64,000 nt of DNA from an uncultured Actinomycetota bacterium (lineage in GTDB: Bacteria > Actinomycetota > Actinomycetes > JAHEKZ01). The stretch lies in assembly GCA_963743915.1 (NCBI GenBank), contig CAVURN010000003.1:512001-576000 (forward strand), given 5' to 3'. The notes beneath the pieces are model-generated. The model searched no databases, was not told the origin of the DNA, and was given only the letters and a program-made list of their open reading frames with translations. Shown in pieces: positions 20,058 through 24,047 of the stretch. The stretch's first letter is position 1; each line of letters starts with the position of its first letter. Made by a program: the position numbers and the translations under genes.

Positions 20058-20507
20058 TCAGGGCCGCCGGTACTCCGCGATGACGACCGGGTAGGCGCCG
20101 TGCGGCGGGTACACGTGGTCCATCACCAGGCGGAGGGCGTCGGGGTGCTCGGCCTCGACCCGGATGTTCCAGCCGGCCCCGGGCCCGTACGTGCCCTCGA
20201 GCTGCAGCGTGTGCGGAGCGCTCAGGCGTCCTGTCGACGCCAGCCAGTGCGGCTGCTGGTGCCACGACTCGGTCCACGTCGACTGGAAGGCGCCGTCCTC
20301 GGGAGCGGCGCCGACCACGAGGAGCCCGTCGTGCTCCTCGCCCTCGATCACCCAGGTGTGCTCGACGAGCGCGACGTGGCCGTGTGCCTTGAAGGAGACG
20401 TGCGCGCGTGACGGGGACTCCGCGTACTCCTCGTCCGGCAGGAACCGGAACCGGTTGGTGCCCGTCCAGTCTCCGGTGTGGTCGGCGAGCCAGTCGAGTG
20501 CCGTCAT
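20058..20507 (-). CDS. Hypothetical protein (DUF1579-like beta-barrel)
   Basis: GDWTGTNR, HDGLL, WTESWH, GWNI; GGAG RBS. Confidence 0.7.
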   Translation of the reverse strand: MTALDWLADHTGDWTGTNRFRFLPDEEYAESPSRAHVSFKAHGHVALVEHTWVIEGEEHDGLLVVGAAPEDGAFQSTWTESWHQQPHWLASTGRLSAPHTLQLEGTYGPGAGWNIRVEAEHPDALRLVMDHVYPPHGAYPVVIAEYRRP

Positions 20508-20576
20508 CGGTCGTCTCCTCGTCGTCTCTCGCGGTCCGTCGGGGCGCACCCTCGTGACCGGTAGTTTGGGCCCCTC

Positions 20577-20649
20577 GGGCCGCTAGCTCAATTGGCAGAG
20601 CTGCGGACTTTTAATCCGTAGGTTCAGGGTTCGAGTCCCTGGCGGCCCA
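20577..20649 (+). tRNA. tRNA-Lys(TTT)
   Basis: GGGCCGCTAGCTCAATTGGCAGAGCTGCGGACTTTTAATCCGTAGG...TTCGAGTCCCTGGCGGCCCA. Confidence 0.96.
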
Positions 20650-20662
20650 CCGTGCCTTGTGT

Positions 20663-20848
20663 TGTCTCGGTTGAGTGGTGACGTTTCCTGCTCGCCTGAG
20701 ACTTGACGGTGTCTCGGCTGATGGTTGACACCGTCTCGGTTGATTCTTGACACCTCCGTTCGGGCTGATGCGTGACGTTCTGGCTCCGGCTGTCGGGTGA
20801 CATGGCTTCGGCTGATGGGTTACAGCTGTTTCGGTTGATGGGTGACAC
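20663..20848 (+). repeat. Array of eight degenerate 21-25 bp direct repeats (IS481-like end, putative transposase-binding sites)
   Basis: Consensus TGTYTCGGYTGATGGKTGACAC; starts with TGT 14 bp after tRNA-Lys. Confidence 0.75.
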
Positions 20849-20856
20849 TCCTGACC

Positions 20857-20945
20857 ATGTTGGTGGAGTTGAGCGTCGTGGAGCGGCGGTAGCAAGCGGT
20901 TCTGGCGGTGATCGCCGAGGGTGTGCCGGTGGTGGCTGCATCCAA
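20857..20945 (+). pseudogene. IS481-family transposase N-terminal remnant
   Basis: MLVELSVVERR*QAVLAVIAEGVPVV resembles actinobacterial IS481 start (ELSVxEQRYQAVLAVI) with Tyr->TAG, then truncated. Confidence 0.65.
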
Positions 20946-20996
20946 GTCCCGACCTGGCATCCTGACGTCAAGATCACCGACGAGGGGAGCCACAAA

Positions 20997-21668
20997 GTGT
21001 CGGCACCGGCAGGCTGGTACGACGACCCACAGAGCCCGGGGCAGCAGCGGTACTGGGACGGCCAGCAGTGGACCGAGCAGCGCCAGCCCGCCGCGAGTGT
21101 GCCCCCGCCTCCCCCGACCGCCCCGGTCACGCATACCGCTGCGGCGCCGGAGAAGAGGAGTCACACGACCCGCAACGTCATCCTGGCCGTGATCGGCGTG
21201 CTCGTCTTGCTCATGGGCGGGTGCACCATCGCGCTTGTCGCCGTCGGCGGCAACACCGTCAACGAGGCGATCGAGAAGACGAATGACGAGTTGGCCGACC
21301 CCGGCGATACCCCTGCGCCCAACGCGTCAGGCAAAGACGATCCGGAGCCGACGCAAGAACTGACAGTCAGCCAGCAGAACGCGCTGGAGTCAGCGGAGTC
21401 CTACTTGTCCTTCTCTGCCTTCAGCGAGGCCGGTCTGATCGATCAGCTGTCCTCGAAGGCCGGCGAGGGATTCCCGAAGGCGGACGCGGTTTGGGCGGTC
21501 AAGCACGTCGAGGTGGACTGGAACAAGGAGGCTGTCGAGGCCGCTAGGTCATACCTCGACTTCACGTCCTTCAGTCGCAGCGGGTTGATTCAGCAGCTAT
21601 CGTCCCCCGCCGGCGACCAGTTCACGAAGGCTCAGGCTACCTACGCGGCGAACAAGGTTGGGCTGTAA
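20997..21668 (+). CDS. DUF2510 + Ltp-family surface protein (superinfection-exclusion-like)
   Basis: PAGWYDDP..QRYWDGQQWT, TM ending MGGC, two Ltp repeats (SQQNALESAESYL..FSEAGLIDQL; DWNKEAVEAARSYL..FSRSGLIQQL). Confidence 0.85.
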   Translation: MSAPAGWYDDPQSPGQQRYWDGQQWTEQRQPAASVPPPPPTAPVTHTAAAPEKRSHTTRNVILAVIGVLVLLMGGCTIALVAVGGNTVNEAIEKTNDELADPGDTPAPNASGKDDPEPTQELTVSQQNALESAESYLSFSAFSEAGLIDQLSSKAGEGFPKADAVWAVKHVEVDWNKEAVEAARSYLDFTSFSRSGLIQQLSSPAGDQFTKAQATYAANKVGL

Positions 21669-21739
21669 GGGTCTTCCGTTCGTGCCGGGGGTGCCTGCCG
21701 TGGTGCAGACCCAGCCCGGCGCACGCGAATGGGTGTCTG

Positions 21740-21830
21740 GTTCCGGCTGATGCGTGACGTCTTGGCTCCGGCTGTCGGGTGACATGGCTTCGCCTGATGG
21801 GTTACAGCTGTTTCGGTTGATGGGTGACAC
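21740..21830 (+). repeat. Second copy of IS481-like repeat array (units 5-8)
   Basis: 91-bp direct repeat of 20758-20848, 4 mismatches by manual alignment. Confidence 0.85.
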
Positions 21831-21872
21831 ACCCTGGACGAGGGAGCCAGTCCGCCGGCTGGACGCCTGGCG

Positions 21873-24047
21873 TCATCCGACGACGCCGGCGGGAACGGGT
21901 TCCAGCGACTGGGGGTGCTCCCTCCGACCCTCGATGTCGAAGGTCGGAAGCACCCGGCCCATCCAGTCGGGCAGCCACCAGTTGGCGTCGCCCAGCAGCT
22001 TCATGGTCGCCGGCACGAGGACGAGGCGCACCACCGTGGCGTCGAGGAAGATCGCGGTGGCCAGGCCCAGTCCCATCATCTTGATTCCCGGGTCATCGCC
22101 GAGCATGAAGGCGAAGAAGACCGCGATCATGATGAGCGCAGCGCTCGTGATCACTCGGCCGGTACGCGCGATGGCTTGGACGACCGATGCCTCGTTGTCC
22201 CCCGTCAGCTGGTACTCCTCCCGGACCCTGCTGAGCAGGAAGACCTCGTAGTCCATCGAGAGTCCGAACAGGATCGCGAACATCAGCATCGGGATGAACG
22301 CGATGACCGGAACGGTCTCCTGCAGTCCGATGAGGTCCTTGCCCCACCCCCACTGGAAGACCATGACGAGGACGCCGTAGGCAGCGCCGATGCTGAGCAG
22401 GTTCATGAGCGCCGCCTTGAGCGGCACCAGCACCGAGCGGAAGACGACCGTGAGCAGCAGGAAGGAGAGCAGCACGACGGCGGCGATGAACCACGGAAGC
22501 CGGTCACCGACCCGACCGCCCAGGTCACCCCAGGTCGCGGTCTGCCCACCGACATGCGCGGAGGCTGTGCTGTCGGCCAGCACCTCCGGGAAGACCTCGG
22601 TGCGGAGCCGCTCGACGGTTTCCATGGTCGCTGCATCCTGCGGAGGGGTGGACGGAAGGGCGACGAGGGTGGCCACCTGCCCATCTCCGCTCAGCTCGGC
22701 CGGTGCCACCGAGGCGACTCCGGGGTCAGCGGCGACAGCTGCGGCCAAGGGCTCGAGGACGCCGGGGTCGGACGAGACGTCGACGGCGATGACCAACGGC
22801 CCGTTGACCCCGGCACCGAAGCCGTCGGCGAGCAGGTCGTAGGCCTGACGCTCGGTACGACTCTCGGGCAGCGCTCCCTCATCCGGAAACCCCAGACGCA
22901 GCGACAGCGCGGGGGCGGCGAGGGCGACGAGCAGTGCTGTCCCGCCGACCGCGTAGACCCAGGCGTGCCCCGACACATGACGACCCCACCGTTGCCACGT
23001 CCGGTCGGCGACGTGAGCCCCCTGACGTTGCCGGCGCCCGGACCGCAGGCCGTTGATCCGGTGGCCGGCCAGCCCCAACAGAGCGGGGAGCAGGGTGACG
23101 GCGGCCACCACCATCGTGCCGACGACGACCGAGACCGCGATGCCGGTCGCCGTCATGAACGGGATGCCCGAGACCGCCAGGCCGAGGATCGCGATGACCA
23201 CCACGCCGCCGGCGAAGATCACCGACTGACCGGCGGTCGCCACGGCCCGTCCAGCAGCCTCCGGCACGTCGAGACCCTCGGCGAGGTACTCCCGATGGCG
23301 GGTGACCACGAAGAGCGCGTAGTCGATCCCGACGCCCAGGCCGACCATCGCTCCCACCACGGGGGCGAAGCTCGGGATGTCGACCAGGTAGGTGATGAGG
23401 GACAGACCGCTGACGCTCACGGTCAGCCCCACGAGGGCGATGCCGATCGGCAGGCCCATGGCCAGCACCGACCCGAAGGCGACCAGCAGGATGACGACCG
23501 CAGCCAGCAGACCGATCGCCTCACCCACGCCCGTCGGCGCCTCCTCGAAGGCGAAGAACAGGTCACCACTCGCCTCCACCTGCAGCAGCGAGCCGGCGGG
23601 GCTGTCGGTCACCAGCTCTTTCAGGTTCTCCAGATCCACCGGGTCCAGCTGCTCCACGACGGGGTACTGCACCCGGATCAGCGCGACCCGGCCGTCAGGA
23701 GACACCGTCCGAGTCGTCCCGAGCACCTGCGGCAGGTCCGCCAGCTCTGCCTCGAGCTCATCGGTCGCTGAGCGTCCGGCGGACGCCACGTCCAGCCGGG
23801 TGTCGTCATCTCGAGGGGTGACGACGACCTGGGCGGTCAGCCCGGCCCGATCGGACTCGGCGGCCACCTGAAGATCCACCGCCTGCTGGGAGTCAAGGCC
23901 CGGCACCACGAACGAGTCCTCGAGCTCTCGACCGAAGCCGGTCGACCCGGCCAGTACGGCAACGACCACGACCAGCCAGACCGCGATCACCCGCCACGGA
24001 CGCATCGCCGCCACTCGACCCCACCGGTACAACAGACCTGACATCAC
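21873..24047 (-). CDS. MMPL family RND transporter
   Basis: GVGIDYALF, GLSMDYEVFL, DATVVRLVLVPA, NWWLP. Confidence 0.93.
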   Translation of the reverse strand: MMSGLLYRWGRVAAMRPWRVIAVWLVVVVAVLAGSTGFGRELEDSFVVPGLDSQQAVDLQVAAESDRAGLTAQVVVTPRDDDTRLDVASAGRSATDELEAELADLPQVLGTTRTVSPDGRVALIRVQYPVVEQLDPVDLENLKELVTDSPAGSLLQVEASGDLFFAFEEAPTGVGEAIGLLAAVVILLVAFGSVLAMGLPIGIALVGLTVSVSGLSLITYLVDIPSFAPVVGAMVGLGVGIDYALFVVTRHREYLAEGLDVPEAAGRAVATAGQSVIFAGGVVVIAILGLAVSGIPFMTATGIAVSVVVGTMVVAAVTLLPALLGLAGHRINGLRSGRRQRQGAHVADRTWQRWGRHVSGHAWVYAVGGTALLVALAAPALSLRLGFPDEGALPESRTERQAYDLLADGFGAGVNGPLVIAVDVSSDPGVLEPLAAAVAADPGVASVAPAELSGDGQVATLVALPSTPPQDAATMETVERLRTEVFPEVLADSTASAHVGGQTATWGDLGGRVGDRLPWFIAAVVLLSFLLLTVVFRSVLVPLKAALMNLLSIGAAYGVLVMVFQWGWGKDLIGLQETVPVIAFIPMLMFAILFGLSMDYEVFLLSRVREEYQLTGDNEASVVQAIARTGRVITSAALIMIAVFFAFMLGDDPGIKMMGLGLATAIFLDATVVRLVLVPATMKLLGDANWWLPDWMGRVLPTFDIEGRREHPQSLEPVPAGVVG

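Follow-up and report, generated by a model that had tools for sequence, protein, structure and literature searches.

Left-end relics of IS481-family elements flank a DUF2510-Ltp gene behind a tRNA-Lys gene of an uncultured actinomycete

Downstream of an intact tRNA-Lys gene (anticodon TTT) of an uncultured Actinomycetota bacterium lie three left ends of insertion sequence (IS) elements assigned to the IS481 family, the stump of a transposase gene, and a single gene encoding a protein with a DUF2510 domain and two Ltp repeats (the Ltp gene). The stretch of DNA analyzed, referred to as the window, comprises 64,000 nucleotides (nt) of contig CAVURN010000003.1 (positions 512,001 to 576,000). We regard it as very probable that IS481-family elements that target tRNA 3′ ends inserted at this locus on at least three separate occasions and left these remains, with the Ltp gene as a bystander. 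Its features are listed below in window coordinates; the left-end and right-end profiles were derived from 36 related elements.

20577..20651, plus strand: intact tRNA-Lys gene (anticodon TTT), the target gene (ARAGORN; Rfam tRNA, 70.6 bits)
20642..20657, no strand: presumed left copy of the 15- to 16-bp target duplication, by analogy with complete copies
20658..20758, plus strand: left-end relic 1, with four repeats and a TGT terminus; profile positions 1 to 102, then broken off
20763..20859, plus strand: left-end relic 2, with four repeats; profile positions 12 to 109 (nhmmer, E = 4e-21)
20857..20931, plus strand: what is left of the relic 2 transposase gene, a 5′ stump of about 25 codons (sequence; DNA match to full copies)
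20997..21668, plus strand: accessory gene of 223 amino acids (aa), with DUF2510, a proline-rich linker, a hydrophobic stretch, and two Ltp repeats
21718..21733, no strand: 16 nt (GGCGCAC...) immediately ahead of relic 3 (sequence compared with tRNA-Lys ends)
21734..21846, plus strand: left-end relic 3, complete (profile positions 1 to 113), with TGT, four repeats, and the ribosome-site region (nhmmer, E = 1.3e-22)
21873..24047, minus strand: convergent MMPL-family transporter gene, an ordinary chromosomal neighbor that bounds the region (Pfam PF03176, E = 2e-75)

At a tolerance of up to 3 mismatches, the 64-kb window contains 15 matches to the repeat core, TCGGYTGATGNNTGACA, compared to 2.9 expected (maximum of 100 shuffles, 7), and 11 of the 15 matches fall within 20667-21829, all of them on the plus strand. 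The original prediction had described a single array of eight repeats beginning with a TGT 14 bp after the tRNA gene. The repeats are there, but they form two different left ends with four repeats each (20658-20758 and 20763-20859), and the TGT singled out lies inside a repeat unit; the true terminus is the TGT at 20658, 6 nt past the tRNA end called by ARAGORN. Relic 1 is 98% identical to a full copy elsewhere in the genome (C5:424259-424357). Judged by this identity, relic 1, the closest to the tRNA, appears to be the youngest of the three. Relic 2 has lost its terminal 11 nt and represents a second IS type, different from that of relic 1, with 77 to 80% identity to full copies on contigs C3 and C5. 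The dead transposase start recognized in the original prediction belongs to it: the ATG at 20857 is followed by an in-frame TAG at 20890 (peptide MLVELSVVERR, then stop), and DNA homology to the 5′ ends of full transposase genes continues until about 20931. The second direct copy of the repeats was also correctly noticed, but its extent differs: rather than 91 bp with 87 identities, it spans 94 nt at 95% identity (20758-20851 versus 21740-21833) and pairs relic 2 with relic 3. Both 94-nt copies lose similarity just beyond the shared stretch and belong to two separate insertions. The DNA beyond relic 3 (after 21846) is unrelated. A profile scan of the window found three left ends, and no right end in the same orientation. 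Rfam detected only the tRNA in the repeat region, and a promoter and terminator scan of 20400-22100 returned zero promoter-like sites and one terminator-like hairpin (1.2 expected by chance).

Searching the rest of the genome with the window segment 20652-20960 yielded 9 matches, and a genome-wide scan for the motif (up to 3 mismatches) gave 136, of which 36 fall in 10 clusters and 100 are scattered singletons. Four of these places are full units of about 1.36 kb, which start with TGT, end with ACA, and carry a single transposase gene reading away from the tRNA. The left ends of the full units have three to four motif matches (four in the clearest copy) and the right ends have two in inverted orientation. 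The transposase is encoded by a single long frame (402 codons in the intact copy) rather than by the two-ORF (open reading frame) frameshift layout of IS3. It is intact in only one of the four full copies, where it specifies a 402-aa protein, here P0001 (C3:229804-231012). P0001 scores 301.4 bits on the NCBIfam IS481 model (NF033577; cutoff, 224) and stays below the cutoffs of the IS3, IS21, and ISNCY models (ISNCY, 84 bits versus 250); its Pfam matches are rve, rve_3, HTH_32, and LZ_Tnp_IS481. These comparisons bear out the IS481-like identity first suggested for the locus and support, at the level of sequence, the assignment of the window repeats and the dead peptide to IS481-family elements, the evidence in the window itself being about 25 codons that are tied to P0001-type genes through DNA identity. 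Searches for an established IS name via protein names returned only the generic labels "IS481 family transposase" and "InsO family". The family is large, with at least 8,000 homologues at E ≤ 1e-30.

Across 26 transposase sequences, residues D145, D205, and E249, together with R256 seven residues further on, are invariant. The first three are the putative catalytic triad; the core of the structure model is poor in this part (predicted local distance difference test [pLDDT] below 50 at residues 122 to 261), as is the model overall (mean pLDDT, 55; predicted template modeling score, 0.28). Its confident parts are two N-terminal helix-turn-helix domains and a C-terminal six-stranded beta domain (residues ~330 to 385; pLDDT, 85 to 89). 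A fold search with the model retrieved only generic helix-turn-helix matches (Z ≤ 7.1) and barely probed the C-terminal domain, and a PDB sequence search with the transposase found only retroviral integrase cores (E, ~1e-5). P0001 extends about 100 residues past the IS481 family model, and this extension includes the beta domain, which holds the invariant residues W332, W347, Q348, Q349, and G353. The domain as modeled is a candidate for contact with the target or with a partner.

All 10 repeat clusters of the genome lie directly 3′ of tRNA genes, namely, those for Met-cat, Thr-cgt, Arg-acg, Lys-ttt, Lys-ctt, and Arg-cct (the reference set being 50 ARAGORN predictions, 4 of which were put aside as doubtful). 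The four full copies are flanked by direct repeats that, read by eye, vary between sites and begin within the tRNA. Such variable repeats rooted in the target are true target duplications and not sequences carried by the element. Their lengths, likewise read by eye, are 13 nt plus one mismatched extension, 14 to 15 nt, and 15 to 16 nt; the duplication at tRNA-Arg(cct), for example, reads GGGCACCGTGGTTT(T). At the tRNA-Lys gene of the window, the stretch 20642..20657 comprises the final ~10 nt of the tRNA as called and 6 nt of trailer. By analogy with complete copies, in which the duplication begins 6 to 12 nt ahead of the tRNA end, it is presumably the left copy of such a duplication, and the right copy was presumably lost together with the right end.

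An origin of the repeats other than from transposon ends is extremely unlikely. They might otherwise be iterons, arm-type sites of a recombinase, or an array with a regulatory or processing role at the tRNA locus, in line with their tandem, even spacing directly 3′ of a tRNA. However, these repeats also occur, inverted, at both ends of four transposase units (~1.36 kb) that are bounded by target duplications, they are present at six different tRNA genes, 7 of 10 tRNA-Lys sites in the same genus are empty, and Rfam recognizes nothing besides the tRNA.

The association with tRNA genes extends well beyond this genome. Relatives of P0001 were confirmed in 284 cases, of which the best 80 were kept, corresponding to 79 loci, mostly from Actinomycetota (Mycobacterium and Nocardioides among them) and some from Dormibacterota, Chloroflexi, and one Solibacter metagenome-assembled genome. 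Scored on the 68 loci with at least 250 nt of upstream sequence, a same-strand tRNA precedes the transposase start in 55, with the tRNA end 49 to 155 nt away (mode, 112). These 55 tRNAs comprise 15 for Lys (8 Lys-ttt and 7 Lys-ctt), 15 for Thr (7 Thr-tgt, 7 Thr-cgt, and 1 Thr-ggt), 14 for Arg (9 Arg-tct, 4 Arg-cct, and 1 Arg-acg), and 11 for Met. In 35 loci, exact repeats of 13 to 18 nt begin 6 to 12 nt ahead of the tRNA end and return directly after the right end, at a distance of 1.30 to 1.40 kb from each other.

Other loci depart from this picture in their upstream sequence. At four of them (L087, L088, L107, and L035), the IS adjoins the 3′ part of a tRNA with a 5′ half that lacks a tRNA fold. 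Partial tRNA copies, e.g., attachment sites of other integrated elements, may account for these. Two loci from Dactylosporangium (L098 and L100; 48 to 50% identity to P0001) have similar left-end repeats and no upstream tRNA; at a distance of about 50 nt, a GC-rich hairpin-like sequence takes its place, a hint that a sister lineage uses a different target.

Of the 62 targets scored, 56 have the left terminus 29 to 31 nt past the first G of the T-loop GTTCGA, and the genes occupied across the related loci (L029 to L107) and the genome under study are those for Lys, Thr, Arg, and Met tRNAs alone (63 targets). Ile, Asn, Val, and Leu tRNAs are never occupied despite their similar acceptor ends. 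A single IS type is found at Lys, Thr, and Arg tRNAs in one genome (L080 to L083) and another at Met, Lys, and Thr tRNAs (L060, L061, and L090), so that the target set is a property of the single element. Compared with the 40 untargeted tRNAs of the genome, the targets differ mostly in the anticodon arm: the anticodon loop is CT-NN-TAA in every target save two Arg-acg genes, and the most contrasting columns are A at −22 (frequency of 0.65 in targets versus 0.05 in untargeted tRNAs), T at −17 (0.95 versus 0.40), and T at −14 (0.76 versus 0.07). The targeted tRNAs are mutually related, and the contrast is therefore a lead rather than a demonstrated recognition site. Mimicry of the T-loop (GTTCGAnTC) by the transposase-binding repeat (TTCGGyTGA) was considered as well and discarded, the spacing being out of phase (36 versus 22 to 25 nt) and the T-loop common to all tRNAs.

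Within the genus, an IS copy or relic occupies 3 of the other 10 tRNA-Lys(ttt) loci and the site is empty in the remaining 7. Among 19 places with the motif, 10 adjoin a same-strand Lys, Met, or Thr tRNA.

Repeated insertion at one site is clearly seen on contig C5 (422794-425712), where tRNA-Arg(cct) is followed by two full copies in tandem and then by a third left end reduced to its first ~43 nt, with every junction repeating the tRNA end (GGGCACCGTG...). Two copies are also stacked after tRNA-Met in a genome of the same genus, and a second left end is present in 5 of 76 related loci. The three left ends of the window fit this stacking pattern. Both tRNA targeting and repeated insertion at one site, as originally proposed for the locus, are thus strongly supported. 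At the tRNA-Lys(ttt) gene of one same-genus genome (L127 in G006), the 11-nt terminus of one IS type (TGTTTGGTTCC) sits between the tRNA and a left end of another type. Given this arrangement, either the rule that the newest copy is nearest to the tRNA has exceptions or the insertion position wobbles.

Several observations weigh against this interpretation of the locus and of its relatives. ARAGORN called no tRNA at 13 of the 68 scored loci; at 5 of these, tRNA 3′ parts that the program missed are visible by eye, and the other 8 lack any tRNA remnant. The acceptor ends of untargeted Ile, Val, Leu, and Arg-ccg tRNAs look much like those of targeted ones. In the genus, 9 of the 19 places with the motif are more than 1.5 kb from any tRNA, most of these places being single matches with one mismatch that occur near the control rate. 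Three of the four full copies have frameshifted transposase genes, with the breaks at differing places (C5:422876-424243, C5:424253-425655, and C3:60-1430), so that current activity is unproven; either decay or assembly errors could be the cause. All relics in the genome are left ends (six solo left ends and zero solo right ends), which random deletion would explain only under selection against deletions that extend into the tRNA, as we propose. Finally, relic 3 lies 1.1 kb from the tRNA, and an extra event is needed to place the Ltp segment in between.

From the structure of the elements, their family, their linkage to tRNA genes, and their duplications and stacks as described above, we infer how the elements may insert, recognize their target, and follow one another, and how the Ltp gene may have arrived and be expressed. 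The subterminal direct repeats of 22 to 25 bp, four at the left end and two, inverted, at the right end, are the presumed binding sites of the transposase, which would join the element ends to two points of the target separated by about 15 bp. The interval between them would take in the last 7 to 10 nt of the tRNA gene along with the initial 6 to 8 nt of its trailer, and gap repair would duplicate this interval, thereby leaving the tRNA gene whole. The left end would then start 29 to 31 bp past the first G of the T-loop GTTCGA. With the tRNA end regenerated, the site could be hit again; a new copy would insert between the tRNA and the older one, and because each lands proximal to the tRNA, copies would accumulate. 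Older copies would lose their interior and right end through deletion, leaving, in the window, three left ends. The Ltp gene likely came with other DNA between insertion rounds, or a deletion moved it beside a relic, and it may be transcribed from the promoter of the tRNA or of the dead transposase gene.

As anticipated by the original prediction, the Ltp gene (20997-21668) is the single gene between the repeat copies, and its two Ltp repeats are confirmed by Pfam (PF07553, E = 5e-35), as is the DUF2510 domain (PF10708, E = 8e-12). The start codon is a GTG located 7 nt downstream of GAGGGGAG. The gene is accessory: 40 related genomes yielded no full-length homologue, their best matches being half-length (68% identity over residues 1 to 106 and 55% over residues 122 to 223), and the GC content of its 3′ half is 62 to 63% versus 70 to 72% in the flanks. 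It sits between relics 2 and 3, directly behind a left end and a transposase stump and ahead of another left end. These accessory traits and this placement are what one would expect of a passenger of a transposase-less IS derivative or of an end-cargo-end system by which tRNA ends collect genes without an integrase, as had been put forward for this locus. We nevertheless consider capture of this kind improbable. The two left ends are in direct orientation, and a unit of left end, gene, and left end that lacks a right end cannot transpose, since it offers no substrate to a transposase that pairs inverted ends. No co-oriented right end was detected in the window, and the 66 nt past the gene align only weakly with four right ends (P, ~0.03 to 0.5) and off the terminus. 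Nor was a left end, a right end, and a flanking target duplication found together at the gene, where the duplication cannot be paired. Left-end and right-end matches are also absent from all 80 metagenome loci (255,603 nt) that encode Ltp relatives (best, 45% identity over the full length) and from the vicinity of Ltp homologues in four related-genome loci (L109 to L112). No second end-gene-end unit was found in the genome or at the tRNA-Lys(ttt) loci of 10 genomes of the same genus. We conclude that the Ltp gene was most likely trapped between successive insertions and not captured by a dedicated mechanism.

A different question is where the trapped segment came from. Temperate phages are a known source of Ltp-type proteins, and integration at tRNA genes is common. 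The gene could be a leftover of an island or prophage that was integrated by a recombinase at tRNA-Lys between rounds of IS insertion, with the 16 nt before relic 3 representing an old tRNA end and its trailer. This origin, which concerns the cargo alone and is compatible with stacked IS insertions, is possible but on balance unlikely. The GC dip over the gene and the phage association of Ltp-type proteins are in line with it. So are the 16 nt before relic 3, which open with GGCGCAC, differing there at one base from the tRNA-Lys(ttt) end (GGCCCAC), and which, on this resemblance, may also be the beginning of a target duplication at a Lys-type tRNA end. A further point in its favor is a 12-nt exact match (TCGTGCCGGGGG; 21680-21691) to the T-stem/acceptor part of tRNA-Arg(tct), which starts 12 nt after the Ltp stop codon. 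However, neither of these two resemblances beats shuffled controls, and as a tRNA remnant the 12-nt match was rejected, because 25 of 200 shuffles reach the best score. Neither an integrase nor any other phage gene was found nearby (10 neighboring ORFs), consistent with the original suggestion that no integrase is involved, and the segment measures only about 0.8 kb. By the marks of an integrase-borne tRNA island, the locus shows no recombinase among these ORFs and tRNA-like attachment-site matches no better than those of shuffled sequences. The genes around it are ordinary, encoding a DUF1579 protein, the MMPL transporter, and a histidine kinase-response regulator pair. Within the genus, the tRNA itself is the only DNA-level match at the tRNA-Lys locus, and the downstream content differs in each genome. 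With trapping as the preferred account, what the window itself contains is dead relics and one trapped accessory gene.

The element resembles several known systems. A published account of the IS481 family gives its members mostly 6-bp duplications (range, 2 to 15 bp), with a subset at about 15 bp; ISMac4 and ISA0963-1 exemplify the subgroup that has TGT...ACA termini and ~15-bp duplications, and such termini are also described in eukaryotic relatives of IS481 (PMC10045372). The present element fits this ~15-bp subgroup and shares with it one DDE transposase, scoring above the NCBIfam IS481 cutoff, a length of about 1.3 to 1.4 kb, TGT...CA ends, and 15- to 16-bp duplications. Its own duplications (~13 to 16 nt in the genome and exact repeats of 13 to 18 nt at the 35 related loci) agree with those of the family. 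It differs in its strict site and orientation specificity toward Lys, Thr, Arg, and Met tRNA genes, at their 3′ ends, and in its subterminal repeats, four at one end and two at the other, where the subgroup has simple inverted repeats. We found no report of tRNA targeting by IS481-family elements in the full-text literature, a search whose coverage excluded ISfinder and subscription journals.

Members of the IS1202 family encode a single protein, have TGT/ACA ends and extra internal binding sites, and insert in fixed orientation 5 bp from dif, and target choice is proposed to reside in the transposase itself (PMC10132070). Its ISAjo2 group is like the present element in the single protein, the TGT/ACA ends, the extra internal transposase-binding sites (presumed here), and the fixed orientation and distance from a conserved site, and unlike it in having dif/pdif targets, 5-bp duplications, and a TnsB-like transposase of 441 to 457 aa (PMC10132070). 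For its part, the present element has a tRNA-end target, a 15- to 16-bp duplication, and a protein that scores as IS481 and not as ISNCY. The IS1202 family is the closest behavioral parallel. Tn7 and Tn7-like elements share with the present element TGT...ACA ends, several ~22-bp transposase-binding repeats (binding being presumed here) in unequal numbers at the two ends, and oriented insertion just past a conserved gene without harm, with tRNA attachment sites in some lineages. Tn7 depends on TnsA, TnsB, and TnsC together with a target selector, either TnsD or a CRISPR effector, and generates 5-bp duplications. The 1.36-kb units described here differ from Tn7 and Mu in having one transposase ORF and no TnsA, TnsC, selector, or MuB partners. 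The element is therefore like Tn7 in end architecture and in the choice of a safe site, yet it is not a member of the Tn7/Mu group. Among prokaryotic DNA transposons, those known to seek out tRNA ends are Tn7-like elements and casposons, the latter inserting at the tRNA 3′ end with 14- to 15-bp duplications. Eukaryotic Dada transposons likewise use tRNA genes as a harmless landing site. That casposons are DNA transposons choosing tRNA genes in this way is also stated in a published account (PMC5137440). Casposons (with the Cas1 casposase) and Dada (with a separate transposase) differ from the present element in using unrelated enzymes and in their hosts and sizes.

For the window itself, the result is modest, and the interest lies in the IS lineage. 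Somewhat short of an even chance, we tentatively propose that the related loci represent a large, undescribed, multiphylum lineage of IS481 elements, in which a lone transposase reads a subset of Lys, Thr, Arg, and Met tRNAs and builds accessory regions without an integrase. Part of this proposal is that the targets nearly all share A-CT-NN-TAA-T in the anticodon arm and that the 29 to 31 bp are measured from the T-loop in one orientation. If it is true, the enzyme would be a one-protein, site-specific DNA transposase that uses a safe harbor and whose 15-bp duplication rebuilds the tRNA. To our knowledge, one-protein site-specific DNA transposons are rare, and several proteins are required in the cases studied so far, Tn7 and CRISPR-associated transposons. 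Such a lineage would offer a simple system for learning how a DDE enzyme reads a distant target feature and a candidate for compact safe-site integration tools in Actinomycetota. It would also explain "integrase-less islands" and direct repeats at tRNA ends that annotators misread as attachment sites. Repeated insertion and decay would, in turn, yield small accessory regions beside tRNA genes, of which the Ltp segment would be one example.

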